A DNA stretch of 32,000 bases from Nostoc punctiforme PCC 73102 (GTDB lineage: Bacteria; Cyanobacteriota; Cyanobacteriia; Cyanobacteriales; Nostocaceae): positions 8,202,323-8,234,322 of the forward strand of contig NC_010628.1 of NCBI RefSeq assembly GCF_000020025.1, written 5' to 3'. Below, in pieces: positions 3,001 to 21,076 of this stretch. The translations under genes were made by a program, and so were the position numbers. Positions within the stretch are counted from its first letter, which is position 1; each line of letters begins with the position of its first letter. The notes beneath the pieces were generated by a model that ran no database searches, was not told the origin of the DNA, and was given only the letters and a program-made list of their open reading frames with translations.

Positions 3001-3220
3001 AGCGATCGCACTTCCTCAGATTACAGTAACAGCGATCGCACTTTCTCAAATTACAGCAAAAGCGATCGCATTTTCTGAGATTACAGTAATAGCGATCGCA
3101 CTTTCTCAAATTACAGTAATAGCGATCGCATTTTCTGAGATTACAGTAATAGCGATCGCACTTCCTCAGATTACAATAACAGCGATCGCACTTTCTCAAA
3201 TTACAGCAAAAGCGATCGCT
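3001..3220. repeat. tandem repeat, 30 bp unit x 7 plus a partial copy; each unit starts with a HIP1 site
   Basis: The unit AGCGATCGCACTTTCTCAAATTACAGTAAT repeats head to tail at 3001, 3031, 3061, 3091, 3121, 3151 and 3181, with a partial copy at 3211. There are a few substitutions per copy (CTT/TTT, CAAA/GAGA). No unique spacers lie between units. Confidence 0.95.
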
Positions 3221-3308: not shown

Positions 3309-3476
3309 GCGTTTCATCAACAAACTCATGCGTTTCATCAACAAAGGCATGCGTTTCATCAACAAACTCATGCGTTTCATCAACAAACTCATGCGTTTCA
3401 TCAACAAAGGCATGCGTTTCATCAACAAAAGCATGAGTTTCATCAACAAAAGCATGAGTTTCATCAACAAAGGCAT
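3309..3476. repeat. tandem repeat, 21 bp unit x 8
   Basis: GCGTTTCATCAACAAACTCAT-type units repeat every 21 bp from 3309 to 3476. Variants are AAACTC/AAAGGC/AAAAGC and GCG/GAG. The two track ORFs here (3279-3476 and 3328-3549) are just translations of the repeat. Confidence 0.95.
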
Positions 3477-3575: not shown

Positions 3576-3662
3576 AGACCTCTCCCTGCTTTTACTACAC
3601 AAAATTATCCCTCTCCGACTCGCAGAGAAACTTGAACTTTAGTTCAAGGTAGGGAGAGGTCT
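3576..3662 (-). terminator. long inverted repeat / stem-loop directly after the WD40 gene stop; possible terminator or REP-like element
   Basis: AGACCTCTCCCT (3576-3587) is the perfect complement of AGGGAGAGGTCT (3651-3662). An inner hairpin CTTGAAC-TTTA-GTTCAAG is also present. On the minus strand the structure starts 1 nt after the TGA stop and is followed by TTTTGATT. Confidence 0.4.
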
Positions 3663-3663
3663 A

Positions 3664-6600
3664 TCACCTGCGTGTGCCAATATCATCACATAAATGCTTA
3701 TCGTCCTTGCTCACATTGGGGTTATTTTGCAAATAATCGCGCACCCAAGTACAACCCTTAACCATTAAATCATCCAAATTGAGATTCCACAGTTTCACCG
3801 TCTTGTCAGAACTTGCAGAGGCAATGGTTTGACCGTCGGGGCTAAATGCCACGCCCCAAACCGAACTGCTATGACCAGTGAGAGTTTGTAAGAGTTGCCC
3901 GTTGCGATTCCACAGCTTCACCGTCTTGTCATCACTTGCAGAGGCAATGGTTTGACCGTCGGGGCTAAATGCCACGCCCCTAACCGAACTGCTATGACCA
4001 GTGAGAGTTTGTAAGAGTTGCCCGTTGCGATTCCACAGCTTCACCGTCTTGTCATCACTTGCAGAGGCAATGGTTTGACCGTCGGGGCTAAATGCCACGC
4101 CCCTAACCGAACTGCTATGACCAGTGAGAGTTTGTAAGAGTTGCCCGTTGCGATTCCACAGCTTCACCGTCTTGTCATCACTTGCAGAGGCAATGGTTTG
4201 ATCGTCGGGGCTAAATGCCACGCCCCAAACCGAACTGCTATGACCAGTGAGAGTTTGTAAGAGTTGCCCGTTGCGATTCCACAGCTTCACCGTCTTGTCA
4301 TCACTTGCAGAGGCAATGGTTTGACCGTCGGGGCTAAATGCCACGCCCCTAACCGAACTGCTATGACCAGTGAGAGTTTGTAAGAGTTGCCCGTTGCGAT
4401 TCCACAGCTTCACCGTCTTGTCATCACTTGCAGAGGCAATGGTTTGACCGTCGGGGCTAAATGCCACGCCCCAAACCGAACTGCTATGACCAGTGAGAGT
4501 TTGTAAGAGTTGCCCGTTGCGATTCCACAGCTTCACCGTCTTGTCATCACTTGCAGAGGCAATGGTTTGACCGTCGGGGCTAAATGCCACGCCCCAAACC
4601 GAACTGCTATGACCAGTGAGAGTTTGTAAGAGTTGCCCGTTGCGATTCCACAGCTTCACCGTCTTGTCATCACTTGCAGAGGCAATGGTTTGACCGTCGG
4701 GCCTAAATGCCACGCCATTAACCGAACTGCTATGACCAGTGAGAGTTTGTAAGAGTTGCCCGTTGCGATTCCACAGCTTCACCGTCTTGTCATCACTTGC
4801 AGAGGCAATGGTTTGACCGTCGGGGCTAAATGCCACGCCCCTAACCGAACTGCTATGACCAGTGAGAGTTTGTAAGAGTTGCCCGTTGCGATTCCACAGC
4901 TTCACCGTCTTGTCATCACTTGCAGAGGCAATGGTTTGACCGTCGGGGCTAAATGCCACGCCCCAAACCGAACTGCTATGACCAGTGAGAGTTTGTAAGA
5001 GTTGCCCGTTGCGATTCCACAGCTTCACCGTCTTGTCATCACTTGCAGAGGCAATGGTTTGACCGTCGGGGCTAAATGCCACGCCCCAAACCGAACTGCT
5101 ATGACCAGTGAGAGTTTGTAAGAGTTGCCCGTTGCGATTCCACAGCTTCACCGTCTTGTCATCACTTGCAGAGGCAATGGTTTGACCGTCGGGGCTAAAT
5201 GCCACGCCCCTAACCGAACTGCTATGACCAGTGAGAGTTTGTAAGAGTTGCCCGTTGCGATTCCACAGCTTCACCGTCTTGTCATCACTTGCAGAGGCAA
5301 TGGTTTGACCGTCGGGGCTAAATGCCACGCCCCAAACCGAACTGCTATGACCAGTGAGAGTTTGTAAGAGTTGCCCGTTGCGATTCCACAGCTTCACCGT
5401 CTTGTCATCACTTGCAGAGGCAATGGTTTGACCGTCGGGGCTAAATGCCACGCCCCTAACCGAACTGCTATGAGCTTCTAATCGGTTACGTTCTTTGACT
5501 CCATAAATTACTTGCTGGAGTGTGGCTACTGCCAAAACGCGGGTATTTGGTTCTACCTTTTTATTTGGTGTTTTGAGTCGTTTTCCTACCTTCAAACCTT
5601 CTATTAAAGCATCAAGTTCAAAATTTGATGCCATCAGGTTTTGTGATTTCAGGCTATTGGCAAGAATTTCGGCATTTATCCGGCGTTTATCTGCATCGGC
5701 TTTGGCGGCAATTGCTTGCTGTTCTTGTTTCTGGGCAATGTTTCGCTGTTTTTCAGCGTCTGCCTGTCTATCCTTTGCTAATTGTTCAGCCGCTTTTGTT
5801 TGCTTAAGGGCTTTTTCTAAGTCTATTCCTCGTTTTTCTGCTAATTCCTGTGCCGACTTGGCTTGTGCCTCACCTGTTTCAGCCCTTTGACGCTGCTTGT
5901 CTGCCTCCCGGTGTTGTTCCTCTGCTTTTTGCTGCTGGTTCTGAGCATTTTTTGTTTGACGGTCTGCTTCTTGCCGCTGTGTTTGTTCTCTTTTTAGGGC
6001 ATCTTGAGCAATTAAACGTTGCTCTTTTTCACTGTCACGGGCTTTTTGGGCAATCAGATTTTGCTTGTAAATATACCAAGCGACTCCCGTCGATAATGTC
6101 GAAAATACAATCATTACAATCACATAAGGCAGTGCAGGTTTAAGCTGTTCCCATCTATCCCGCAAGTTAAACGGCAAATGTTTATTAATCCACTTATAAT
6201 CAAAGACTTGCCGATAAACTTCATTCCGCACCCGCAAAACATTATTCTCCCGCCGCACCACCCCTGAAAGCTTTAAGTGAGATTTAGCTAAAGACTGTTC
6301 TTCATCCACAACCGCCCGCTTACCCCAGCGAATCTCGCGGTAAATAGTCAAAACCTCCGGGTCTGGTGAGCGTTTGGTGAGCATATCGCGGACAAACTGC
6401 AAGTTATTGTCTTGTTCGCTCATTGCGCCAAAAAATGTGCTGCTAACTATGCTGTCTATATCGGCAGAGGATAAGACTCGATCCCCCCTAACCCCCCTTA
6501 AGAAGGGGGGAACAATAGAACTGTTGCTAACGGGGGCTGTGGGAATCTCCAAATCTGGAAGTTCATTGCCCCCCTTTTTAAGGGGGGTTGGGGGGATCAA

Positions 6601-7353
6601 AACCAAGGCATCACAGAGACGCTGCGTTAAATAAGGATGTCCCCCCGTCCACTTCAACACCTGGCGTAATACCTGCTTAGACTCATCGCTGGGTAATCCC
6701 AATCCCTCAGCGAAGGGTAAGGCTTCCTCAAAGGTAAAATCAGTTAAATCCACACGCTGTCCAATATTAAACGGTGTGCGCTTGGCATCGCTGATTAAAT
6801 CGCCGGGAGTCGCTACCCCCATTAAAACAAAAGAAAGCCGCCCAAACTCAGGATTAGTCGCACGGGCAACATAGAGATAACGAATTGCGATAAAAAAATC
6901 ATCGGTAAAATCCAGGCTGAGGGTAGAGTCAATTTCATCCACAAAAATCACCACTTGCCCTTCAACCTCAGCCAGCAAAACCTTCTCAAAAAACTGTGTC
7001 AGCCGTTGCGATACTCCCAGATGCTCGTGTTCTTGCCACCAACTCACCACATCTGTATCAAACATAAGTTGGTCATCCAGTTTGACCAAAAAGCCAAAAT
7101 ACCACTGTTCGGCTGTGACACTTGCCCCCAATTCCTGAAGGTCAACAATTACTGAGCTAATCCCCTCTTCCCTTAATGTGTCTGCCGTGCGTACCATCAG
7201 GCTAGACTTACCCATTTGGCGCGGCGTTAGCACATAGGCGAATATTGCTGACCGACATAAACCAAGCAATTCCTCATCAGCTTGACGGGGAATGTAAATC
7301 CCACTGCCAGCCTGTACAGTCCCCCCCACGGTGTAAATGCTTGGATTACCCAC
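3664..7353 (-). CDS. STAND/AAA-like P-loop NTPase - TM helix - coiled coil - 14x WD40 repeat protein
   Basis: 1229 aa with a GTG start at 7351-7353. The N-terminus YTVGGTV...IPRQADEEL, Walker A TPRQMGKSSL, Walker B VVIFVDEIDS and GGHPYLTQRL match the cyanobacterial 'AAA-like domain' family (Pfam AAA_35 as I recall it). A hydrophobic segment ALPYVIVMIVFSTLSTGVAWYIY follows. Then come ~170 aa rich in Q/K/E/A, and 14 units of HSSSVxGVAFSPDGQTIASASDDKTVKLWNRNGQLLQTLTG. Confidence 0.92.
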   Translation of the reverse strand: MGNPSIYTVGGTVQAGSGIYIPRQADEELLGLCRSAIFAYVLTPRQMGKSSLMVRTADTLREEGISSVIVDLQELGASVTAEQWYFGFLVKLDDQLMFDTDVVSWWQEHEHLGVSQRLTQFFEKVLLAEVEGQVVIFVDEIDSTLSLDFTDDFFIAIRYLYVARATNPEFGRLSFVLMGVATPGDLISDAKRTPFNIGQRVDLTDFTFEEALPFAEGLGLPSDESKQVLRQVLKWTGGHPYLTQRLCDALVLIPPTPLKKGGNELPDLEIPTAPVSNSSIVPPFLRGVRGDRVLSSADIDSIVSSTFFGAMSEQDNNLQFVRDMLTKRSPDPEVLTIYREIRWGKRAVVDEEQSLAKSHLKLSGVVRRENNVLRVRNEVYRQVFDYKWINKHLPFNLRDRWEQLKPALPYVIVMIVFSTLSTGVAWYIYKQNLIAQKARDSEKEQRLIAQDALKREQTQRQEADRQTKNAQNQQQKAEEQHREADKQRQRAETGEAQAKSAQELAEKRGIDLEKALKQTKAAEQLAKDRQADAEKQRNIAQKQEQQAIAAKADADKRRINAEILANSLKSQNLMASNFELDALIEGLKVGKRLKTPNKKVEPNTRVLAVATLQQVIYGVKERNRLEAHSSSVRGVAFSPDGQTIASASDDKTVKLWNRNGQLLQTLTGHSSSVWGVAFSPDGQTIASASDDKTVKLWNRNGQLLQTLTGHSSSVRGVAFSPDGQTIASASDDKTVKLWNRNGQLLQTLTGHSSSVWGVAFSPDGQTIASASDDKTVKLWNRNGQLLQTLTGHSSSVWGVAFSPDGQTIASASDDKTVKLWNRNGQLLQTLTGHSSSVRGVAFSPDGQTIASASDDKTVKLWNRNGQLLQTLTGHSSSVNGVAFRPDGQTIASASDDKTVKLWNRNGQLLQTLTGHSSSVWGVAFSPDGQTIASASDDKTVKLWNRNGQLLQTLTGHSSSVWGVAFSPDGQTIASASDDKTVKLWNRNGQLLQTLTGHSSSVRGVAFSPDGQTIASASDDKTVKLWNRNGQLLQTLTGHSSSVWGVAFSPDDQTIASASDDKTVKLWNRNGQLLQTLTGHSSSVRGVAFSPDGQTIASASDDKTVKLWNRNGQLLQTLTGHSSSVRGVAFSPDGQTIASASDDKTVKLWNRNGQLLQTLTGHSSSVWGVAFSPDGQTIASASSDKTVKLWNLNLDDLMVKGCTWVRDYLQNNPNVSKDDKHLCDDIGTRR
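3783..5474 (-). repeat. intragenic tandem repeat, 123 bp unit x ~14 (WD40 blades), near-identical at the DNA level
   Basis: A 123 bp periodicity is visible by eye (for example GCTAAATGCCACGCCCC[A/T]AACCGAACTGCTATGACCAGTGAGAGTTTGTAAGAGTTGCCCGTTGCGATTCCACAGCTTCACCGTCTTGTCATCACTTGCAGAGGCAATGGTTTGACCGTCGGG). Most units differ by a single nucleotide. Confidence 0.95.
6480..6598. mobile_element. MITE-like palindromic element inserted in frame within the NTPase-WD40 gene
   Basis: GATCCCCCCTAACCCCCCTTAAGAAGGGGGG (6480-) is an almost perfect inverted repeat of CCCCCCTTTTTAAGGGGGGTTGGGGGGATC (-6598). The two arms flank a ~55 bp core. The element is translated as IPPTPLKKGGNELPDLEIPTAPVSNSSIVPPFLRGVRGD, between the conserved GGHPYLTQRLCDAL and SSADIDSIV segments. 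Confidence 0.75.
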
Positions 7354-8881
7354 GTAGATGCTCCCGGAAATAATCGGTATAAAGTTGACAACGAGGAAAC
7401 ACTACACGCCCTTCCCGGCGCACCAAACCCGCACCCCGCAACCGGAAAAAGATGCGCTCATCTTCACAGGTGTTCTGGTGAATTACTTGGAACATACCTT
7501 GAACCAACTCCTGTTTGTTATGCAGCCGGAAGAGGTGGTTACGCAAATGATTGCCAAAGGGGCCATCCTCTGCGATCGCATTGGCAAATAATTCGGTAGG
7601 ATAGAGGCGATCGCTAGCAACTGAGTAAAGTGCAAGGCGTACTAAGTAAGGATGTCCACCTAGCAACGCTATTAATTGCTTTTCTTCGCTGGCATTGAAG
7701 GGTGAACCATGACGGCGGTTTAAATCAGCAACCTGTGCTGCTGTAAAATCTTCTAAATCAATTACTAGCCCAACATTAAAGGGGGATTGGTTGAGATTAT
7801 CAATTAGCTGGTAGGGTTCGGTGGAAGTAACCAGCGCTAAATCCAGTTGCTTCCAGATGGGATTAGTGGCGCGGCTATTGTGCCAGCTTCGCAGCATTCC
7901 AAAGAAATCAGAGCGAAAATCAGTATCAAAGACCCTTTCAACTTCATCCATCGCTAAGACAATGGGGTTGCCAAACTCTTTGAGCAAATAGCGGCCGACG
8001 TAGCGAGTGCAACGCTGACTATTGCCCAAAGGCATATTCCAATACTCATCAACTTTATCTGTCATTTCCAGTTCATCAGTTAACCAAGTACAGAACTGGC
8101 GAAAGAAAAGGTCAGCATTAGTTAAGGCAGCTTTGTCAAACAATTGAAAATCCAGCAAAGCAACCCGCTTACCTGCATTCACAGCAGTATTAATTGTGCG
8201 GATTAACAGGGAACTTTTGCCCATTTGCCGGGGGCCTTTAATTGTAATTGTCACACCCTGCCGCTCAATAGTCTCTAAAGTAAGGGCATCAGATGAGCGT
8301 TCCACGTAAAAAGCGGATTGCGATTCCATTGTTCCTTCGGGCATTTCCAGGGAGACAGGCTGTGCTGAAGGAAAGGGACGGGGTAGGAGTGACGGCTGAC
8401 TCTTCTGGATTAAGTCTGCTTTTGATTTTTCTTCACTGATAGCTAATGCACCGCCATAGACAGCCTGCAACAACTCTGCAATTAGTCGCGGCGTATCTTC
8501 TGCATCTTTCCAGAATGCCCAGTTAATCCCATTTAAGTAAGCACTCAAGGGATACAGGAACGGTTCTTGATACGCCAGACGCACCGGGAGAATTATCGGT
8601 CGTCCTGACTGTGATTTTGCCAAGTGGTGTGCTGTCTCTATCTCTGCCACCACCATCTCGCTGCTAGTTGACAAAGCAGAAAGGAAAGTAATCAAAAAAT
8701 CAGCTTGGCGGATTTCTGCTTCAATACATTCAGCCCAGCGTGTGCCAACAGACATGGTTTGGTCGATGAAGACTTTGTGCTGCTGCGATAGTGCTTGGAA
8801 GACTTGGAGTGCTACTGGTTCATCGGGGCTAGCATTACGCTTGTAACTGATGAAGATGCGTTTAGCCTGTGAGTTTAACAT
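7346..8881 (-). CDS. TIR domain - STAND/AAA-like P-loop NTPase
   Basis: 511 aa. The N-terminus RIFISYKRN...VFIDQ...GTRW...ADFLITFLS...SSEMVVAEIE has a TIR_2-like pattern with the conserved Glu retained. Then come FYVERSSD, Walker A GPRQMGKSSL, Walker B VLAMDEVE and GGHPYLVRL, paralogous to the downstream gene's NTPase. The TAA stop at 7346-7348 overlaps the downstream GTG start by 8 nt. Confidence 0.88.
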   Translation of the reverse strand: MLNSQAKRIFISYKRNASPDEPVALQVFQALSQQHKVFIDQTMSVGTRWAECIEAEIRQADFLITFLSALSTSSEMVVAEIETAHHLAKSQSGRPIILPVRLAYQEPFLYPLSAYLNGINWAFWKDAEDTPRLIAELLQAVYGGALAISEEKSKADLIQKSQPSLLPRPFPSAQPVSLEMPEGTMESQSAFYVERSSDALTLETIERQGVTITIKGPRQMGKSSLLIRTINTAVNAGKRVALLDFQLFDKAALTNADLFFRQFCTWLTDELEMTDKVDEYWNMPLGNSQRCTRYVGRYLLKEFGNPIVLAMDEVERVFDTDFRSDFFGMLRSWHNSRATNPIWKQLDLALVTSTEPYQLIDNLNQSPFNVGLVIDLEDFTAAQVADLNRRHGSPFNASEEKQLIALLGGHPYLVRLALYSVASDRLYPTELFANAIAEDGPFGNHLRNHLFRLHNKQELVQGMFQVIHQNTCEDERIFFRLRGAGLVRREGRVVFPRCQLYTDYFREHLRG

Positions 8882-9111
8882 TACTATTAACCTTGTCTTC
8901 CTTCAGCTTTTTAAGTAGAAAAGCTTATCTAATTGCGTGTCAATTTTGTACAGAAGTTGGGTAATTCTGTGCTTTGTCATCCAAGGGCATTTTTTCCCTA
9001 TTTCGAGAATTAGCTGAACAAATTAGGATTTTATTCACAGCGCTATCAATTAGTTACACTCTACTACAGCGCAGTTGCAGGCAATTACCGACAGCACAAA
9101 AAAATTGCTTA

Positions 9112-9237
9112 CGGAGTTCAAAGGCTCATTAACGGAGTTCAAAGACTCGTTAACAGAGCTAAAAGACTCGTTAATGGAGCTAAAAGACTCGTTAACGGAG
9201 TTCAAAGACTCGTTAACGGAGTTCAAAAACTCGTTAG
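9112..9237. repeat. tandem repeat, 21 bp unit x 6
   Basis: CGGAGTTCAAAGACTCGTTAA-type units start at 9112, 9133, 9154, 9175, 9196 and 9217, with a few substitutions (GGAGTTC/AGAGCTA/GGAGCTA). Confidence 0.95.
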
Positions 9238-9636: not shown

Positions 9637-10230
9637 TCAATCAACCGCCCTCTTCACTGCATTGCCTGCATCGTCAGCTGTACGCCGAACATTTCTACCA
9701 GCATCCTCAGCCCCACGCTGAACATTTTTTGTCGCGTCTTCGGCAGCATTTTGGGTATTACCTTTGAGATTTTCAATTCCTCGCTGAGTCCCCTTAACTA
9801 CGCCTTCTCCCAATTCATTAGCTGAACTGCCGATATCTTCACCCAGGTTCTTCACTCTTTCACCAAAGGGTGTACCTTGCTTGTAATTTCGGCCATACTG
9901 CTCTGGGCTGTCAATTCCCTTCTGCTCGATATTTCTTTGAGCATTTTTCGCCAGTGCATCAGCTCTGTCAGTCGCTGCTTTCTCGTCTAATCTGCCTCTG
10001 GGTTCTACATCACTAAAGTTATTCATTCCACCAGCAGGAGAAGAGAGAGGATAATCTTTTGTGGGATCGTATCGTTTGGAATAAGGTGATTGAGCATCAG
10101 GCTGTGGTGGCTGTGTTGCTATTCCTGGGGCACCACAAGCTTGTGTCAAGAATAAGAATATCCCTGCCAAAAAAACTGTTAAAACTTTCAAGGGACGAAT
10201 GCTTTTGAGCCAATTCATTGCTTTTTTCAT
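9637..10230 (-). CDS. hypothetical secreted protein / probable lipoprotein with a charged repeat-rich C-terminus
   Basis: 197 aa. A strong RBS (AAGGAG) lies 8 nt upstream of the ATG. The signal-like N-terminus ends LTQAC|G. The C-terminus has reiterated AEDA-x-xNVxR motifs. The N-terminus is paralogous to the next gene. Confidence 0.7.
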   Translation of the reverse strand: MKKAMNWLKSIRPLKVLTVFLAGIFLFLTQACGAPGIATQPPQPDAQSPYSKRYDPTKDYPLSSPAGGMNNFSDVEPRGRLDEKAATDRADALAKNAQRNIEQKGIDSPEQYGRNYKQGTPFGERVKNLGEDIGSSANELGEGVVKGTQRGIENLKGNTQNAAEDATKNVQRGAEDAGRNVRRTADDAGNAVKRAVD

Positions 10231-10330: not shown

Positions 10331-10900
10331 CTATCTGCCTACTGCTGGATTTCTTTGTAATTCAGGTCTGCGACTTGCTTCATCTGCCTTATTTTTCAAA
10401 AAGCCGGAAGCTTCTTCAACAGTCTCTTTTACAGTCTCAAGCCGATCTTGAACCCGATCTCCAACATTTGGTTCATTCTGAATCAAACCACCGGGTTCAG
10501 GCTGGCGGAAATCTTTATCTGTGATGAGTGGCAACTCTGCTTCTTTATTGATTCGACCTGCTGGTGTCTCAGCACCAGGATAAAGTATCTTAGATTCTCT
10601 ATCTGCTGTAGCAATCAACAATTCCAAACTTGGTTGTAAGCTAGCTTGGTCGCGTCCCTGACTGGCTTTTGGATTTGCTATTTTCGGATCGGTAGACATT
10701 CTGTAGTTGCCATACTTGTCTCCACCATTCTTATAAGGATTGTTTGCTCCACCAGCTTGCACAGCAGGGTTTTGTGGATTTGCACCTTGAGCATTTGCCC
10801 CACTACAAGCAGTGCTGACTATCAACAATAGTCCAGCTAAAAAGATAGTTAATATCTGGCGCAATCTTATTTGTTTCAAGAATAGTCTCACAGCGTTCAC
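10331..10900 (-). CDS. hypothetical secreted protein / probable lipoprotein (paralog of 9637-10230)
   Basis: 189 aa with a GTG start preceded by AGGAGG. The signal-like N-terminus LKQIRLRQILTIFLAGLLLIVSTAC|S aligns with LKSIRPLKVLTVFLAGIFLFLTQAC of the neighbouring gene. Confidence 0.7.
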   Translation of the reverse strand: MNAVRLFLKQIRLRQILTIFLAGLLLIVSTACSGANAQGANPQNPAVQAGGANNPYKNGGDKYGNYRMSTDPKIANPKASQGRDQASLQPSLELLIATADRESKILYPGAETPAGRINKEAELPLITDKDFRQPEPGGLIQNEPNVGDRVQDRLETVKETVEEASGFLKNKADEASRRPELQRNPAVGR

Positions 10901-13815: not shown

Positions 13816-13866
13816 TGTCACTTAAAGGATATTGTGGCCGTTTTTAAAGCATAAAGTGGCCGCAGT
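13816..13866. repeat. transposon terminal inverted repeat, distal (tniQ-side) end
   Basis: The sequence is TGTCACTTAAAGGATATTGTGGCCGTTTTTAAAGCATAAAGTGGCCGCAGT. It holds two GTGGCCG-containing putative transposase-binding repeats about 22 bp apart. Confidence 0.85.
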
Positions 13867-13900
13867 AGTAAAACCTTAGAGAAAGGCGAATAAATAAGAT

Positions 13901-15487
13901 TTACTGTGAAAGATCCAGTCTTATCTGCCTTAAAACATCAATTACCTCAGCCTGCCACAGCAAAGAGGGATGAGGCATAAATTTTCTGAGATTTTTAGCA
14001 GTAGGGGTAATGCCTTGTGCATGAAGTACTGAAGCGAGTTGGCGTACTTCTCGACAGCCTTGCTCAATAGCTAGTTTATGGACGAATTTGCGGTAATCTT
14101 TATAGCGTAAAGAAATAGCATGGCACACAATAGGGCAATAGTGGTAGAAAGTAGCCAAACCAATACCAGTTCTCTTAGCTATTTTTCTTAGAGAAGGTGG
14201 TGGATACTCGTCGCTAAACAAAGCTAATTCAAGTATGTCTCTGATGTGTAAAAATCTTAGCTGCTGTTGATATTCACTATATCTAGTAGCCAAAGATGCT
14301 GATAAAGATTTTGAGCAAGCAGTTAAACTACTAGGAGTTTTGAATCCTAAACGAACAGCTAATTGAGTTAAAGAAGGAGGTGGTTCTTCTTCTTGAGCTA
14401 GTTGCATCGCCTGAATAACTCGTTCGCACTTAGGACTACTATTTGAAGTAACTAAAGCAGACTGTGATGATAATTTTTTCTGTTTAGGAGCAGGTAGAGA
14501 AACTAGCTGCTTAAGAGTAAGAGGTAGTATTTTAAGTTGAAGAAAATCGACAAGATTAGTTGATAAGGCGTAGCAGATTTTCAAAAGTTTATCTAAATTT
14601 GGGATGGCTACACCTGAATACCAATGTAGAATTTCATATCTCGATAACCCAAGCCAACGACCAAAAGCGGAAACATTACCTTGAGTATATTGATAGACGT
14701 AAGCTTCTAGGATTGTTTTAATAGTCTCTCTTGGAGGTGGACAAGGAAATTCAGGAGCTTGAGCAATTAAATCTCCTAAAGTCTTAACTATCCAAATCTC
14801 TTGCTGTAAATTGGGTATCTCCTCGAACAATCTCTTATCTGGCAAAGATACTTCATAGTTCATCCCCAACCAACCACCACATTTCAGACAAAATCCAGGT
14901 CGTGAGTTATGCCACAGGTGTAAAAATTCAAGGTCACAGTGAGGACATTTTGATTCTAAAAATCGATAATGGATGGGACAAATGTTAGCTGGTTTCAAAG
15001 CCCACAGCAGAGGTGAATAAATGACTTGTTGATTATTTAACCAGTCTTGATAGCAATAAGGACACCAAGCATGAGAATGCTTGAGCAATCCCAAAACTGG
15101 GAAGACTTTTGCCCAAGGTAGCATTGTCAAAAACTGTAAGTCAGTACGTTTTGTCAATATTTCTAGAGCAAAAACCAGTTGTTTAGCTCCAATTTGTGTT
15201 CCGTTTAAAGCTTTTACAGAAGCTTGTCCATACAAACTTACGATACTTTTAGAATTCAAGGGATTGGTAGTATGGTTATGCCCAACTATTGGTTTTATCT
15301 CTCTAGCCAATAAAGTTCCAGGCAATACGCTATGAGCTGCGGCTAGACGAGCAACATAGCTAGTCAGACTTTCAACATAACAAGTACCAAGTCCAATCGG
15401 TTCCAGATGAAACAACCGGCTAGGACTGGGAGTAAATTCTGGGTCTTTGAGCCACAATTCATCGTTAACCGCCATGTTAGTCATCAT
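13901..15487 (-). CDS. tniQ: TniQ-family target-selection protein, long TnsD-like form
   Basis: 528 aa. The N-terminus PSRLFHLEPIGLGTCYVESLTSYVARLAAAH is a typical TniQ domain. Cys clusters follow (CPYCYQDW...CPIH, CPHCD...CLKCG). The C-terminus has two HTH-like copies (PPPSLTQLAVRLG, PPPSLRKIAKRTG). It overlaps the tnsC stop by 11 nt. Confidence 0.85.
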   Translation of the reverse strand: MMTNMAVNDELWLKDPEFTPSPSRLFHLEPIGLGTCYVESLTSYVARLAAAHSVLPGTLLAREIKPIVGHNHTTNPLNSKSIVSLYGQASVKALNGTQIGAKQLVFALEILTKRTDLQFLTMLPWAKVFPVLGLLKHSHAWCPYCYQDWLNNQQVIYSPLLWALKPANICPIHYRFLESKCPHCDLEFLHLWHNSRPGFCLKCGGWLGMNYEVSLPDKRLFEEIPNLQQEIWIVKTLGDLIAQAPEFPCPPPRETIKTILEAYVYQYTQGNVSAFGRWLGLSRYEILHWYSGVAIPNLDKLLKICYALSTNLVDFLQLKILPLTLKQLVSLPAPKQKKLSSQSALVTSNSSPKCERVIQAMQLAQEEEPPPSLTQLAVRLGFKTPSSLTACSKSLSASLATRYSEYQQQLRFLHIRDILELALFSDEYPPPSLRKIAKRTGIGLATFYHYCPIVCHAISLRYKDYRKFVHKLAIEQGCREVRQLASVLHAQGITPTAKNLRKFMPHPSLLWQAEVIDVLRQIRLDLSQ

Positions 15488-16616
15488 CTGAATTTACCCC
15501 TACATCATCTCTTTTAGGTTTTCTTTGTCCAACACGACCTTTTTTGAGTAGGGAATTTTTGGCTGGCATTTTTATTCCATGTTCTGTTGAATATTGCCGC
15601 TCAAAAAAACTGGATTCTTCTTGAAAGCGTTTAAATCCCTGTTGTGCTTCTTCCTTAATTTTGTTGATACGAGATGCAGAAAAAGCACCTAATTTAAGAT
15701 GTTTGCTATTAAGAGTCCGAGCTTCTTCAGAATAGGCAACTCTCAAAGAACGAGTTAACCAATTCTTCAATAGCCCCACACAACCAACTGAGCCAGAAAA
15801 AAGATACTCATAGTGTTGTTCTAATTTTGGTTCTTGTACAAGCGGAATGTGGCGTTGAAAAGTTCTAATTACTCTAATAAATTCAGCAATATCTTCTGGG
15901 TTATCAGCTTGGTAAGGTAACAGGTGAATATCTTCGCTACGCCGCCCTATTTGCCCATTCAAGGTAGGACAGTTAAGCAGTTCATAAGTTCCAAATAAAA
16001 TATGTACTGTACCAGTAAGATTAGCAATAGACTTAATCCAGTTCATTTGCTGTAACATCTGGTGTCCGCCTGCCATCATAAATAAATGCTGTGCCTCGTC
16101 TACAGTAAAAGCTTTTACCTGACGATAACGAAATGCTTTTTCCATTGCTCGGCGTAATGCGGGCGAATCTTGGCGGTAAGCCCGATTTAGCAACCCCAAA
16201 TCCTTTACCTCACCGTGAGGAATTTCATAATCAATTTTGTATTCAATCAAAACTTCCTGAAGGGATTCTAGGGCGCGAGTGTAATAATCTTTATAGCTAA
16301 ACTTTCCTTGTTCTGTTGGAATAGCTTCAATACCAGCAACAGCAATTTGACCAGGATTTTGGCGTAATGAGGGGAGAAATTCGTAATTTAGCAGATTTTC
16401 CAGACGCAAGCGTAAGGTTGTTTTTCCTACACCAGTCACACCAAAAACTAAAAATACTAAAGTGTCAGCTGGCTCCAGAATATTAATTAATAAAGTATCT
16501 AAGGCTTGTTTGAGCCTTTGATGTGGAATAGTGATACTTTTGAAATAATCAGTTTTAATTTCGTTCGGCTGTAAGAGAAGTTCTTCTGGAAAAGAGTGCG
16601 ACTGAATTTTTACCAT
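15477..16616 (-). CDS. tnsC: TnsC/TniB-like AAA+ ATPase of a Tn7-like transposon
   Basis: 379 aa. Walker A is FGVTGVGKTT and Walker B is FTVDEAQHL. GAGGAG lies upstream of the ATG. The gene sits between the transposase and tniQ, as in Tn7-like operons. Confidence 0.85.
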   Translation of the reverse strand: MVKIQSHSFPEELLLQPNEIKTDYFKSITIPHQRLKQALDTLLINILEPADTLVFLVFGVTGVGKTTLRLRLENLLNYEFLPSLRQNPGQIAVAGIEAIPTEQGKFSYKDYYTRALESLQEVLIEYKIDYEIPHGEVKDLGLLNRAYRQDSPALRRAMEKAFRYRQVKAFTVDEAQHLFMMAGGHQMLQQMNWIKSIANLTGTVHILFGTYELLNCPTLNGQIGRRSEDIHLLPYQADNPEDIAEFIRVIRTFQRHIPLVQEPKLEQHYEYLFSGSVGCVGLLKNWLTRSLRVAYSEEARTLNSKHLKLGAFSASRINKIKEEAQQGFKRFQEESSFFERQYSTEHGIKMPAKNSLLKKGRVGQRKPKRDDVGVNSDDD

Positions 16617-16784
16617 AGCTCCTCTGTATTGTAAGCTTCTATTTTGGTTAAATCTATTAATTTTTTTGCTGATGATTTTGGCTTTTTAATGCTTTCTGAA
16701 CCTGCCAAAATATTTTTATCTACATCTTGAACATTAGCTGAATAATTGTGTTTACTTAATTTACTTTCAATAACTGAGCTTTTT

Positions 16785-19220
16785 TCAATTAAAAGCCCAA
16801 ATATCTTGTTGTGCTAAATCATGTAAGCGTTGTAATAACAAAGTTTCTTGGGCTTCAGTTCCTTCTAAATATGTAGCTTTTTCTTGGGCAGATAGAGTAA
16901 TTCTTTGAGCGTGTTTCTGCCTTTTTCGACGTAATTGTGTGCTGGCTATGTTCACTTCTTTTTCGGAACGATTTTGGAAGGATTTGTAATGTTCAGAAAT
17001 ACAGCGTATCCAACGTCCCTTAACGTAAGCATAAGCAGTCCCCATATCAAAAGGGTCGTAACGAATAGGTACATTAGTTCCTTCAATTTCTGGTCTTATG
17101 AACGAATCATCAATTGACCAATAGTAGAGATAATTAATTTTCACGCCTCTACTTGGTTGAACTTTTGCAGTTCCTTTAGGTGTAGAAGGTAAGGTAAAAA
17201 TCTTAAAATTATCATCATAAATAATCTGTTTCTGAGGGCGATAACCACTTGAATTTAGCCCTGACATAAAAGTTTGACGTGGGCTTTGTCCTAATGTTGG
17301 ATGTTCTCTGCAATCATAGAATTCGTAACAATATGAACAAAAGTTTTCGTAGAGTTGATCTAGTGTCCAAACAGCTTGATTTTTGGGATTATTTGATTTC
17401 GTGACTTGGCGGACATTCTTAGTAATTTGAGTGTTGCCTCTAAGATTATAAAAAAACTCTGTATTTGTAGTTCCAAAAATACGTTCAATAATTGAACCAA
17501 ATCTGGCTTTCGCAGCTGGTCGCTGCTTTTTGGTACATTCAAAAGCCGCTAACAAGGTCTCAAAGTATGTACTACTAAATTCTGTCCCACCGTCAACAAC
17601 TATTGTCTCTGGTAATTTCTCAAATCGCTGTACGCAGATTCTTAATACCATCATGCAACTACGGTAGCTTGGCTCGTCAAAAGTTAGGTAAACTGCGAGA
17701 ATACGTCGGCTGTAAGCATCGATTAACAGAGTTGCCCAAGGTCTACCAAGAAGATAACCTGTTCGGGAGCATACTAACTCAATATCCAGTTGCGTATGGT
17801 CAATGTGTGCTATCTCAAATGGACGGTCGCCATGACATGGTGTGGTTAATTTCAACTCCCAATACAATAAAGATTGTTGATAAGCTGCTCTGTTTCCCTT
17901 ACGTTTTTTTGTTTGCCTATAACCAGAACGATGTTGAATTCTAGAACAAAATGTAGCGTAGCTAGGCAGCTTATCTGTTAGACCTGCTTTCTCCCATTCT
18001 CTTGCTAGAATTCCATAAACAGCTAGTTTGCTTCTTTGTTGAAAAGTTTCATAATATTCTTCAATTATTTTGTCAATGAAATCTTGAGACGATTGAGAAA
18101 TTCTGGGTAAGCGATTGCCTCTAGCATTAGAGTTATTTAGCAGCCCAATATAACCACATTTGTACGCCTTTTGTGCTGCTATAAACTTAGCCTTCCATCT
18201 GCGAATAGTACGTTGTGGAACAGTTTCTTTATCTCTATAACTGTCATTAAGATAAGGTTCAATTACTTCATATCTTCGGTTAGCTTCTGCCAAGTCTTCA
18301 GGACTAGCTCTCAAAAAACGCTCCATTGCTTTTGGAGACATTTTTACTTGATTATGAGTTTTAGGTTCCAGTTGATTGGGTTTAACATCTAAAATATTCA
18401 GAATCGTTCCATTATTCGGTTGCGATTTTATCATTTGTACATAAGCTACCGCGATTTCTTGGTCACGGAAAAGCTGTACTTTTTCTGGCTCTGCTAAGGG
18501 TGCGGCACTCAAATTAATGTAAATTTTTTTTGTAGCTATTAAAGCATTTATGTCATCAGGATTGCTCTGTTGAGTATGAATCATTTCCCAATAACTTATG
18601 CCCGGATTTAAGCTAATTAACTTCACCAAATTTTCAGCTATTTCTGGGTCAATTTGGTAATCTTCAGTAGTATAGGCTTTGAGAAATAGTCGATTTCTGT
18701 ATTTAATCCAATCAATTTCTGTATCTAACCGAATTCGGTAATACAGTCCTAATTTTTCTGCATAAGCAACTGCTGGCAGGTTTAACCACTGCCCATCTTC
18801 TGAACGCATATAACGTTGTGATTGTTTAGCTGCTAATTTTTCTAATCTTGATTCTGGTTTCCACTCTTCAAAACCTGCACTCCGCTTCCGAATTACGAAA
18901 AAGTCTGGTATATGCGAAGCTTTGATTATTTCCCCACTGCTTGAGGGGAATTCTAGAGTAATTTGATATGCTTGGTCGTAGTATTCGAGTACATCTGCGT
19001 CTTCTTCGTACTCCTCTACACCTGGCAATTCAATTTTATGGGACTCAAATTGAATAGTTTTTCCCATTTTGCGACTGGCGTAGTCGCCCCGGACATTTAT
19101 ACCACTGCTTTTGACTCGCCGAATTGGTTCAGAGGCACGGATTTGGGAAATTAATTGCCTAGCCTCTTGTGGTAAATTTACGCCGCGACACCAATCATTA
19201 AACTCTTGGTCGCTCAACAT
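16785..19220 (-). CDS. tnsAB: fused TnsA-like endonuclease / TnsB-like DDE transposase
   Basis: The track ORF runs to a GTG at 19262, but the ATG at 19220 (MLSDQEFNDW) is the more likely start. The N-terminal ~130 aa carry a TnsA-type E/D/K pattern (FESHKIELPG ... HIPDFFV ... FEEWKPES). The rest is a Mu/TnsB-type DDE core (HIDHTQLDI, LLIDAYSRR, VVDGGTEFSS, SIIERIFGT). Confidence 0.85.
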   Translation of the reverse strand: MLSDQEFNDWCRGVNLPQEARQLISQIRASEPIRRVKSSGINVRGDYASRKMGKTIQFESHKIELPGVEEYEEDADVLEYYDQAYQITLEFPSSSGEIIKASHIPDFFVIRKRSAGFEEWKPESRLEKLAAKQSQRYMRSEDGQWLNLPAVAYAEKLGLYYRIRLDTEIDWIKYRNRLFLKAYTTEDYQIDPEIAENLVKLISLNPGISYWEMIHTQQSNPDDINALIATKKIYINLSAAPLAEPEKVQLFRDQEIAVAYVQMIKSQPNNGTILNILDVKPNQLEPKTHNQVKMSPKAMERFLRASPEDLAEANRRYEVIEPYLNDSYRDKETVPQRTIRRWKAKFIAAQKAYKCGYIGLLNNSNARGNRLPRISQSSQDFIDKIIEEYYETFQQRSKLAVYGILAREWEKAGLTDKLPSYATFCSRIQHRSGYRQTKKRKGNRAAYQQSLLYWELKLTTPCHGDRPFEIAHIDHTQLDIELVCSRTGYLLGRPWATLLIDAYSRRILAVYLTFDEPSYRSCMMVLRICVQRFEKLPETIVVDGGTEFSSTYFETLLAAFECTKKQRPAAKARFGSIIERIFGTTNTEFFYNLRGNTQITKNVRQVTKSNNPKNQAVWTLDQLYENFCSYCYEFYDCREHPTLGQSPRQTFMSGLNSSGYRPQKQIIYDDNFKIFTLPSTPKGTAKVQPSRGVKINYLYYWSIDDSFIRPEIEGTNVPIRYDPFDMGTAYAYVKGRWIRCISEHYKSFQNRSEKEVNIASTQLRRKRQKHAQRITLSAQEKATYLEGTEAQETLLLQRLHDLAQQDIWAFN

Positions 19221-19330
19221 ATTGGCCCCCAAGCTTTTAAAGCCGCAACAAGCTCTTACCACAAATCTAGGCTTTCGCCAGTTAAACAGTCTTTTATTGA
19301 TATAAATATTTATACTTACCAGTTCAGATG

Positions 19331-19381
19331 ACTGCGGCCACTTTATGGTTTAAAAACGGCCACAATATCCTTTAAGTGACA
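19331..19381. repeat. transposon terminal inverted repeat, tRNA-proximal (tnsAB-side) end
   Basis: ACTGCGGCCACTTTATGGTTTAAAAACGGCCACAATATCCTTTAAGTGACA is the reverse complement of the 13816-13866 end apart from one mismatch. Confidence 0.85.
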
Positions 19382-20743: not shown

Positions 20744-21076
20744 GGGACTTCCAACAAATAAATTATCCAATTTTGTGGGGTGGGCAACATGAGCGCCCAG
20801 TTAAAGAGGGCGCCTATATTGACATTGGTGATAACTTAACGTGAAACCTTTGTCAAGACCTGATATTGAGTTCATTCACTGACCATCACTCAATGCCTTA
20901 CCCCACCCTAACCCTCCCCTTGTAAATGGGAGGGAACTGGATTTTTTCCCCCCTTTACAAGGGGGGATTAAGGGGGGTAAAACGCCTGTGGATAAGCGTT
21001 TGAGCTTAACTTCAAACCAATGGCAAGATGCCCACCCCACAGAAAATAGTTGAGTATTTTTATTTGGAAGTCCTTT
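20744..21076. mobile_element. MITE-like non-autonomous element (~330 bp) with ~45 bp imperfect terminal inverted repeats
   Basis: The left end GGGACTTCCAACAAATAAATTATCCAATTTTGTGGGGTGGGCA matches the reverse complement of the right end TGCCCACCCCACAGAAAATAGTTGAGTATTTTTATTTGGAAGTCCTT. The interior carries C6/G6 hairpins (CCCCCCTTTACAAGGGGGG, CCCTCCCCTTGTAAATGGGAGGG). Confidence 0.7.

Follow-up and report, generated by a model that had tools for sequence, protein, structure and literature searches.

Bacterial defence proteins of the STAND/NLR-like type, such as Avs1-5, bNACHT and TIR-NLR proteins, carry an effector (a TIR domain among them), a P-loop nucleotide-binding oligomerisation domain (NOD) and a repeat sensor on a single chain. 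A two-gene arrangement is known from the nSTAND2 operon, in which two STAND nucleoside triphosphatases (NTPases) are proposed to form a toroidal hetero-multimer, one partner having eroded NTP-binding motifs and carrying GT4 or HEPN effectors (Kaur, Iyer, Burroughs and Aravind 2021, eLife, PMC8195603, Fig. 6C). For plants and animals, passages in PMC11298796 and PMC9975940 describe paired NLRs (RRS1/RPS4, CHS3/CSA1 and NAIP/NLRC4) as adjacent sensor and executor NLR genes whose products form a hetero-complex. Here, we describe a pair of overlapping genes, named A and B, found in a 32,000 nt stretch of the Nostoc punctiforme PCC 73102 genome (NC_010628.1, positions 8,202,323 to 8,234,322), which we call the window. 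A encodes a TIR domain joined to an AAA_35 NTPase and B encodes an AAA_35 NTPase followed by a predicted transmembrane helix, a coiled coil and WD40 repeats. On balance, we lean towards the model that A and B are two halves of one sensor/effector switch built on paralogous, STAND/NLR-like AAA_35 NTPases. Window positions of the genes are as follows.

7346..8881, minus strand: gene A, 511 aa from an ATG start, TIR-AAA_35 protein, proposed effector subunit (open reading frame (ORF), translation, Pfam)
3664..7353, minus strand: gene B, 1229 aa from a GTG start, AAA_35-transmembrane helix-coiled coil-WD40 protein, proposed sensor subunit (ORF, translation, Pfam)
7346..7353, minus strand: 8 nt overlap GTGGGTAA, with the B start codon over the A stop codon, predicted translational coupling (sequence)
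3610..3648, minus strand: two terminator-like hairpins just 3' of the B stop codon, putative end of the two-gene operon (consensus scan only)

With the single-chain STAND proteins the pair shares a TIR effector, a P-loop NOD, a repeat sensor and a predicted Avs3-like fold. It differs from them in that effector and sensor are on two polypeptides that each have an NTPase, in that this NTPase is AAA_35 and not NACHT, NB-ARC or Avs, and in that the sensor lies behind a predicted transmembrane helix. The canonical NLR order of effector, NOD and repeat sensor on one chain is therefore absent here, as A is effector plus NOD and B is NOD plus transmembrane helix plus sensor, and it is approached only in rare fusions elsewhere. 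The pair and nSTAND2 are both two-gene operons with a STAND-type NTPase in each gene, but going by the published description of nSTAND2 the two are set apart by the Walker motifs retained in both A and B, the TIR effector (with or without CHAT and other domains) and the predicted membrane-anchored sensor. Like the paired eukaryotic NLRs, as those passages portray them, A and B are adjacent genes for a putative sensor and executor, and some A/B loci are also arranged head-to-head (L027-L031, L033 and L055). This is an analogy only, and both eukaryotic partners are full, cytosolic NLRs whereas A and B each lack what the other has.

A PADLOC search with A and B returned only sub-threshold P-loop or TIR fragments and a WD40 repeat match, with no Avs or bNACHT, and NCBIfam gave nothing above its cut-offs. 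For Thoeris, ThsB/ThcB4 scored far under the cut-off (28.8 bits versus 220), ThsB1 gave an E value of 0.004 and the window contains no gene resembling ThsA. No description of an AAA_35 A/B pair or of AAA_35 function was found in the literature covered, which did not extend to supplementary tables and subscription journals. The PADLOC and NCBIfam results agree with an earlier examination made from the window alone (the sequence-only reading), which had not recognised the arrangement as a named defence system. Other claims of that reading also stood. The ORFs and the junction sequence confirm its overlap of two same-strand genes, and all the motifs it quoted are present in the translations (IFISYKR, SSEMVVAEIE, GPRQMGKSSL, VLAMDEVE and GGHPYL in A; TPRQMGKSSL, VIFVDEID and GGHPYL in B). 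The Pfam search it had suggested for both proteins returned TIR_2 and AAA_35 in A, and AAA_35 and 14 WD40 repeats in B.

The GTG start codon of B (7353-7351) and the TAA stop codon of A (7348-7346) both fall within the 8 nt GTGGGTAA. On the coding strand the junction is ...CATCTACGTGGGTAATCC..., and a wider read of it is ...CTACGTGGGTAATCC... Because of the overlap, A and B would be made together from one mRNA. Conservation of this arrangement was assessed in a set of loci that encode an A relative, 49 from species-representative genomes and 80 from metagenomes, to which two contigs were added. All ORFs were scored with three purpose-built hidden Markov models (HMMs), one for the TIR domain and one for each of the two NTPase types, A and B. 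The loci come from cyanobacteria, Chloroflexota, Acidobacteriota and metagenomes and were counted without de-replication, and 117 of them have enough flanking DNA. A B-type gene is found directly downstream at the end of A in 93 of the 117, divergently oriented just upstream of A in seven (the head-to-head loci named above) and 0.5-2.2 kb downstream on the same strand in five. No B was found in the remaining 12, and adjacency is kept in 105. Of 129 homologous A-gene ends, 95 have the 8 nt overlap in the form RTGNNTRA, and eight more have a 4 nt ATGA overlap. Conservation of the RTGNNTRA overlap is far beyond chance, and it holds down to 58-65% protein identity. The recurrent neighbourhood that the sequence-only reading proposed to look for in Nostocales thus extends beyond that group.

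Distant examples retain the same organisation. In Blastocatellia, a kinase-TIR-AAA_35 gene and an AAA_35-transmembrane helix-coiled coil gene form a pair with the conserved junction. The junction is also conserved in the pair on an Anaerolineae contig (L051), where B has approximately 12 predicted transmembrane segments and a gene for bDLD1 (bacterial death-like domain 1; 7259-8092 of L051) directly follows the pair. An Abditibacteriota plasmid carries an A/B pair with this junction too. In plasmid pTCL26-01_A of Nostoc sp. TCL26-01 (L132; 123.5-134.9 kb), two AAA_35 pairs are found in tandem right after a NACHT-domain gene, with ISAs1 transposase genes following them. One consists of X-AAA_35 and AAA_35-HisKA-HATPase_c and the other of CHAT-TIR-AAA_35 and AAA_35-...-6TM, and the TIR-bearing A-type protein is paired even though it is only 38% identical to A from the window. 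The A:B gene ratio is 1:1 and no third conserved gene was seen at the pair loci. Natural fusions with the organisations B-TIR-A (P0242), X-TIR-A-B (P0328) and TIR-A-B (P0251) were found, as were B-B and A-A tandems. Short overlaps are common in bacteria, and A and B might be no more than unrelated neighbours that overlap through genome compaction. We give this explanation almost no credence and set it aside, as it is contradicted by adjacency in several phyla, the shared junction motif and the fusion proteins. Instead, cross-phylum synteny, conserved coupling, Rosetta-stone fusions and the segregation of effectors from sensors described below support the conclusion that A and B represent a conserved functional partnership.

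Relatives of A are numerous. A threshold of E ≤ 1e-3 gives 9958 cluster representatives and one of E ≤ 1e-30 gives 2348, and identity over the TIR-AAA_35 block is 67-99% among the best 120 matches. At least 2241 homologues were found for the N-terminal 400 aa of B. The A-type NTPase module (in the window, the TIR-AAA_35 block) is always C-terminal in its protein, and what precedes it is variable or, as in A from the window, absent. Among 65 representatives sampled, the N-termini include CHAT (14), Ser/Thr kinase (nine), trypsin (Trypsin_2; five), ParA-like (five) and calcineurin-like phosphoesterase (Metallophos; three) domains, and others have a cyclase, PNP, Mrr nuclease, EAD1 or EAD4. This set matches the effector/adaptor repertoire of conflict systems in Kaur et al. 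2020/2021. In B-type proteins the NTPase comes first, and the C-terminal part consists of WD40, TPR, pentapeptide, CHASE2, DUF2610, PAS-GAF, His kinase or Ser/Thr kinase domains or of a bare coiled coil. A-type proteins never carry a sensor, and B-type proteins never carry an effector.

The part of A that would act as effector is defined by two features.

8498..8857, minus strand: TIR domain, aa 9-128 (Pfam TIR_2; homologue profile)
8642..8644, minus strand: codon of Glu80, the predicted catalytic Glu (SEMVVAE80IE; homologue alignments; Cat1 alignment)

Pfam identified TIR_2 at aa 9-128 of A (E 1.4e-18; 67.9 bits, cut-off 28) and full-length AAA_35 (PF14516) at aa 180-507 (E 2e-121), and hydropathy revealed no transmembrane-like helix. 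When the TIR region alone was used to query the PDB with phmmer no match was returned, and a profile of homologues was needed. The profile matched Cat1, a CRISPR-associated TIR enzyme that cleaves nicotinamide adenine dinucleotide (NAD+), with an E value of 3.5e-7, and also AbTIR, TcpB and SARM1. Glu80, which is the first of the two Glu residues in AEIE, lines up with the one in 'WCWDELE' of Cat1 that belongs to the W-x-x-x-E motif, and likewise with the W-x-x-x-E Glu of AbTIR and SARM1. It is invariant in 16/16 and 12/12 aligned homologues, as is the surrounding motif S..S..SEMV..E, while Glu82 is variable. A TIR fold recognised by profile and a catalytic Glu in an S..S..[W/M]xxxE helix are the features of TIR NADases, and their presence upholds the earlier claim of a TIR-like N-terminus with Glu at the catalytic position and suggests that A is an NAD+-cleaving TIR enzyme. 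Many homologues carry an extra enzymatic domain (CHAT, kinase or trypsin) N-terminal to the constant TIR, as might be expected if the TIR were a scaffold or adaptor, with A only nucleating assembly and another protein the true effector. We consider this very unlikely, since Glu80 and its motif are invariant and the solved structures that match best (Cat1, AbTIR and SARM1) are TIRs with NADase activity. Moreover, A in the window is without a further effector domain, and no third conserved gene was seen.

Each protein contains an AAA_35 module.

7361..8344, minus strand: A-type AAA_35 module, aa 180-507, with nucleotide-binding, helical (GGHPYL) and winged-helix parts (Pfam, AlphaFold2, Foldseek)
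8210..8236, minus strand: Walker A of A, GPRQMGKSS, aa 216-224 (sequence; R-x-x-GKSS invariant across the A and B families)
7943..7960, minus strand: Walker B of A, VLAMDE, aa 308-313 (sequence; D-E pair invariant across the A and B families)
6154..7353, minus strand: B-type AAA_35 module, aa 1-400, with VIFVDEID, GGHPYL and winged-helix-like LKLSGVVRRENNVLRVRNEVY (Pfam, BLASTP against A, family alignment)
7201-7227, minus strand: Walker A of B, TPRQMGKSS, aa 43-51 (sequence)

In B, the Pfam match to AAA_35 covers aa 11-245 (E 3e-36). Comparison of the two NTPases by BLASTP revealed 33% identity over 237 aa (E 1e-35), which bears out their description as paralogues. An alignment of 96 A- and B-type sequences showed no variation in Walker A (R..GKSS) or Walker B (DE), and both NTPases look catalytically competent. 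A pre-P-loop Y..R..D and the GxP-like GHPYL are also invariant in both families, and no MHD-type His could be confidently assigned. Foldseek with an AlphaFold2 model of full-length A gave a mixed list of AAA+ and STAND proteins, and that model was replaced by a second run restricted to the A NTPase, made with a mixed A and B alignment of 96 sequences (predicted local distance difference test (pLDDT) 91.2, predicted template modelling score (pTM) 0.87). The second model has a five-stranded P-loop domain, a helical domain that starts from the invariant GHPYL and a winged helix with a beta-hairpin. Its top Foldseek matches in the PDB were the archaeal ATPase_2 (PF01637) proteins PAB2304 (2qen; E 1.5e-9) and SSO1545 (2fna; E 2.4e-8), with a template modelling (TM) score of 0.60. 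These have no detectable sequence similarity to AAA_35, are stand-alone proteins of unknown function and are without TIR, transmembrane helix or WD40. Over the whole module, the STAND cores of CED-4, Avs3, RPP1, NRC4 and Sr35 matched with TM scores of 0.52-0.61 (0.54-0.56 for Avs3), and ORC/Cdc6 proteins mostly with 0.40-0.50 and up to 0.55. The definition of STAND NTPases used here reportedly goes back to Leipe et al. in 2004. Of its elements, intact Walker A and B motifs are present and a tripartite NOD is seen in the predicted model, but no named STAND clade was recovered by HMM, with Pfam giving only AAA_35, AAA_22, AAA_14 and AAA_16. It is fair to describe the predicted AAA_35 fold, with its order of nucleotide-binding, helical and winged-helix domains, as STAND/NLR-like. 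That part of the earlier NLR/STAND-like label was retained on the AlphaFold2 and Foldseek results, and membership of a named STAND clade was not.

Downstream of its NTPase, B has the following features, and one more lies within the NTPase linker.

6067..6135, minus strand: predicted transmembrane helix, A407-Y429, 23 residues (hydropathy peak 1.86 over 19 aa)
5554..6066, minus strand: helical stalk of approximately 170 aa rich in A/Q/K/E, a putative coiled coil (composition, residues 430-600; weak profile matches)
3760..5481, minus strand: 14 WD40 repeats, aa 625-1198 (Pfam WD40, 14 stretches; Tandem Repeats Finder (TRF))
3667..3759, minus strand: C-terminal cap with the only two Cys after the transmembrane helix, C1201 and C1222 (sequence; homologues)
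6484..6595, minus strand: in-frame palindromic, G6/C6-rich mobile-repeat insertion in the B NTPase linker, aa ~252-290 (inverted repeat)

Hydropathy of B revealed a single transmembrane-like segment, A407-Y429, and together with composition and Pfam it corroborates the hydrophobic helix, coiled coil of approximately 170 aa and 14 WD40 repeats of the sequence-only reading. The stalk gave weak matches to TolA, Borrelia_P83 and ATP-synthase subunit b, and 14 repeats are enough for two seven-bladed propellers. Of 57 complete B proteins encoded at the loci, 47 have a transmembrane helix at this position, as do approximately 95 of 120 database homologues. Its presence follows the type of C-terminal domain. 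WD40, CHASE2, pentapeptide and some TPR variants of B have exactly one transmembrane helix after the NTPase, whereas variants with ATP-requiring or typically cytoplasmic C-termini (Ser/Thr kinase, His kinase and PAS-GAF) are without it. In some strains, the B at the orthologous Nostoc locus has CHASE2, an established extracytoplasmic sensor domain, after the same helix (E 6e-69; three further transmembrane helices). The number of Lys plus Arg residues flanking the helix is 3.24 on the N-terminal side versus 2.45 on the C-terminal side, which favours an N-in orientation. The approximately 800 residues after the helix hold just two Cys, and a cap with this Cys pair recurs in WD40-type homologues. 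Because the helix is conserved, CHASE2 variants exist, helix and domain type track each other, and the charge bias and Cys pair point the same way, the WD40 domain is predicted to be extracytoplasmic, and B is probably anchored N-in/C-out with its stalk and both WD40 propellers in the periplasm or thylakoid lumen. This layout of an external repeat or propeller sensor, one transmembrane helix and cytoplasmic signalling that ends in TIR resembles that of Toll-like receptors (TLRs) and of Mycobacterium tuberculosis PknD, in which a cytoplasmic N-terminal enzyme is connected by a transmembrane helix to an external beta-propeller. It differs from that of TLRs in that the TIR is on a separate protein, presumed to be recruited via the paired NTPases, and in that the repeats are WD40 and not leucine-rich repeats, with no homology to TLR ectodomains.

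The sequence-only reading had instead envisaged WD40 sensing by a cytosolic split NLR. In such a system, the WD40 domain would recognise an intracellular phage protein and allow the partner TIR to act, leading to abortive infection of the Avs/bNACHT kind. The logic of an effector-NOD and a NOD-sensor, the NLR-like fold with its matches to Avs3, RPP1 and CED-4, and the existence of B relatives with TPR or WD40 that have no transmembrane helix (L130 and L088) are all consistent with it. However, the NTPase is separated from the WD40 repeats by a 23-residue hydrophobic helix that most family members share and that predicts a sensor outside the cytoplasm, and thus a transmembrane receptor. In addition, sister strains have CHASE2 where the window has WD40, the helix correlates with C-terminal domains able to work outside the cell, and there is no defence-island context. 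A cytosolic sensor is therefore unlikely in our view.

Within the WD40 array, TRF identified a 123 nt unit present in 13.8 copies that share 98% DNA identity. Across the 13 internal repeats (3779-5473), the sole recurrent difference is in codon 9, which is TGG (Trp) in seven repeats, AGG (Arg) in five and AAT (Asn) in one, and there is zero synonymous variation. This indicates that the array was homogenised very recently while one surface-type position was kept polymorphic. In the orthologue in L058, the repeats are variable at several positions. The fungal NACHT-WD40 proteins (HET-E/D/R and NWD), which are single-chain, cytosolic and involved in allorecognition after cell fusion, also have highly conserved internal repeats. 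Near-identical WD40 DNA, varying copy number and few variable positions are common to those proteins and the array in B, but they are NACHT-based single chains in the cytosol whereas B is AAA_35-based, paired and predicted to be membrane-anchored.

Many Nostoc strains have the pair at a fixed site with the gene order orf12173 - LPG-synthase-like - DUF6658 - orf9637 - A - B - DUF4351 - PNP. Comparison of these orthologues revealed that A is 94-98% identical, and that B shares 71-96% identity in the NTPase and 43-83% in the stalk and has 11-15 WD40 motifs or a different sensor. In five loci (L052, L009, L024, L013 and L040), A at the same site is 96-97% identical and B is of the form TM-CHASE2-3TM, with an NTPase only approximately 71% identical to that of the window. 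A short version of B, with a coiled coil between two transmembrane helices, is found in L011 and L054. These variants look like allelic sensor cassettes at one locus. Copies in some other strains are truncated or disrupted (L042, L045, L048, L023, L040 and L075). The combination of a constant effector with a rapidly changing sensor, differences in copy number and loss in some strains is typical of recognition loci, and an immune role is plausible but unproven. A further difference is the palindromic insertion of approximately 110 nt after the GGHPYL helix of B, which adds approximately 38 aa (LIPPTPLKKGGNELPDLEIPTAPVSNSSIVPPFLRGVRGD) and is present in the orthologues in L001, L007, L017, L027 and L028 and absent from those in L003 and L034. 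A similar palindrome is found at 20903-20977 of the window.

In the model that we favour, the B NTPase would be in the cytoplasm, with the single N-in transmembrane helix anchoring it and the stalk and two WD40 propellers reaching into the periplasm or thylakoid lumen. A would be soluble, its TIR and catalytic Glu joined to the partner NTPase and without a sensor of its own. A ligand binding at the WD40 surface would send a signal across the membrane and switch the B NTPase, which would then form a hetero-oligomer with its A counterpart and bring TIR domains together. Once clustered, these would either cleave NAD+ or produce a signal from it, and the cell would arrest or die, most probably in a conflict or regulated-cell-death response of a filamentous bacterium. 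The least secure elements are the external position of WD40, the NADase activity and the conflict role. A stronger form of the model is that the pair is a bacterial transmembrane innate-immune receptor that combines TLR logic (external repeats, one transmembrane helix and TIR) with NLR logic (oligomerisation of paired NODs), and in which WD40 surveys the periplasm, a compartment that is continuous along cyanobacterial filaments. We offer this tentatively, as a possibility that is probably not correct in full. The same holds for its extension, in which WD40 would detect phage, envelope damage or signals from lysed neighbours and trigger NAD+ collapse by TIR, and AAA_35 pairs would make up a large receptor class with thousands of members.

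Several observations weigh against the favoured model or against an immune role. The transmembrane helix and topology are predictions from hydropathy and domain logic, and canonical WD40 propellers are, to our knowledge, unusual in the periplasm. Hetero-oligomerisation of A and B is likewise a prediction, made from synteny and fusions. The first AlphaFold2 run, with full-length A and 16 close homologues, reached a pLDDT of 60 and its TIR region was unusable. Neither A nor B matched the NB-ARC or NACHT models of Pfam, and a profile of the NTPase found only TIR matches and generic P-loop noise among PDB sequences, hence no solved relative detectable by sequence. Seven of the 12 loci without B belong to one metagenome, Ga0247727 (L080, L084 and five others), where the A-type proteins are CHAT-TIR-AAA_35 or kinase-CHAT-TIR-AAA_35 and are followed by large genes for NTPase-less beta-propeller proteins (SBBP, BNR/sortilin-like), which may be another way of providing a sensor. 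Ordinary signal-transduction domains (PAS-GAF, CHASE2 and His kinase) on many B relatives suggest that the family may serve general signalling. A shares 60-70% identity across phyla, a degree of conservation that is unusual in defence genes. The pair has a fixed chromosomal position across Nostoc strains, with vertical inheritance, and its neighbours in the window are housekeeping genes or genes of unknown function, with no defence island. In nine neighbouring genes, PADLOC found only generic Ser/Thr kinase matches on one unrelated gene. Genomic context thus lends nothing to the defence role put forward in the sequence-only reading. Plasmid copies of the pair exist but are a minority.

These observations bear most directly on the main rival explanation, which is that the AAA_35 pair is a general, non-immune switch that answers a cue from the environment or envelope with an NAD-derived messenger, proteolysis, phosphorylation or a cyclic nucleotide. 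It could act in stress adaptation, development or filament maintenance with no recognition of an invader, on the model of STAND-type regulators such as MalT and AfsR. The PAS-GAF, CHASE2, HisKA-HATPase and Ser/Thr kinase C-termini of B, the very high conservation of the A core, the fixed Nostoc position among housekeeping genes and the finding of no homologue of A in phage genomes are what such a switch would lead one to expect. Against it, the A N-termini are conflict-type effectors (CHAT, trypsin, TIR, Mrr, PNP, calcineurin-like phosphoesterase and EAD1/EAD4), a bDLD1 gene adjoins the pair in L051 and a NACHT gene the two pairs on the Nostoc plasmid, the WD40 array is homogenised and variable in copy number with one hypervariable position, and the locus has been pseudogenised or deleted in some Nostoc strains. 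We regard a non-immune function as a serious possibility, though one that we do not expect to prevail.

Some further sequences in the window flank the operon. An array of six 21 bp tandem repeats (TAACGAGTCTTTGAACTCCGT) is found at 9111-9236, approximately 230 nt upstream of the A start codon, and two arrays lie 3' of B, one of 7.3 copies of 30 bp and one of eight copies of 21 bp (3001-3219 and 3309-3476). The three may be regulatory elements or mere cyanobacterial repeat clutter. A search for promoters around the operon was uninformative, with fewer sites than shuffled sequence gave. Two tandem, paralogous DUF6658 genes (9637-10230 and 10331-10900) lie immediately upstream of the operon. They are kept there across Nostoc strains and have no PADLOC match. 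Approximately 5 kb from the pair is a minimal Tn7-like transposon (13816-19381) bounded by 51 nt terminal inverted repeats (TGTCACTTAAAGG...) that are 98% complementary. It consists of the following.

13816-13866 and 19331-19381: Tn7-like inverted repeats
16785-19262, minus strand: TnsA-TnsB fusion
15477-16616, minus strand: TniB/TnsC
13901-15487, minus strand: TniQ

The transposon has no cargo, and its flanks, AACAA and CAAAA, do not form a clean 5 bp target-site duplication. As it is absent from the orthologous Nostoc loci, it is a strain-specific insertion. The possibility that the pair is Tn7-like cargo was considered and rejected, as A and B are outside the inverted repeats and the element is missing from loci that keep the pair.

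AAA_35 is a large family for which we found no solved structure detectable by sequence and no functional description. Recognising that its members occur as obligate-looking A/B pairs turns an anonymous annotation, "AAA-like domain protein", into a model of a two-subunit receptor. If the model is correct, the pair would be a prokaryotic counterpart of the paired sensor/executor NLRs. It would also be an NLR-like system with its sensor outside the cytoplasm, of which we know no earlier example, and would bridge NLR-type and TLR-type designs. With sensors that can be swapped at one Nostoc locus, it would provide a modular chassis in which STAND signal transfer between subunits and across a membrane may be studied, and it is relevant to immunity and regulated cell death in cyanobacteria that are multicellular.

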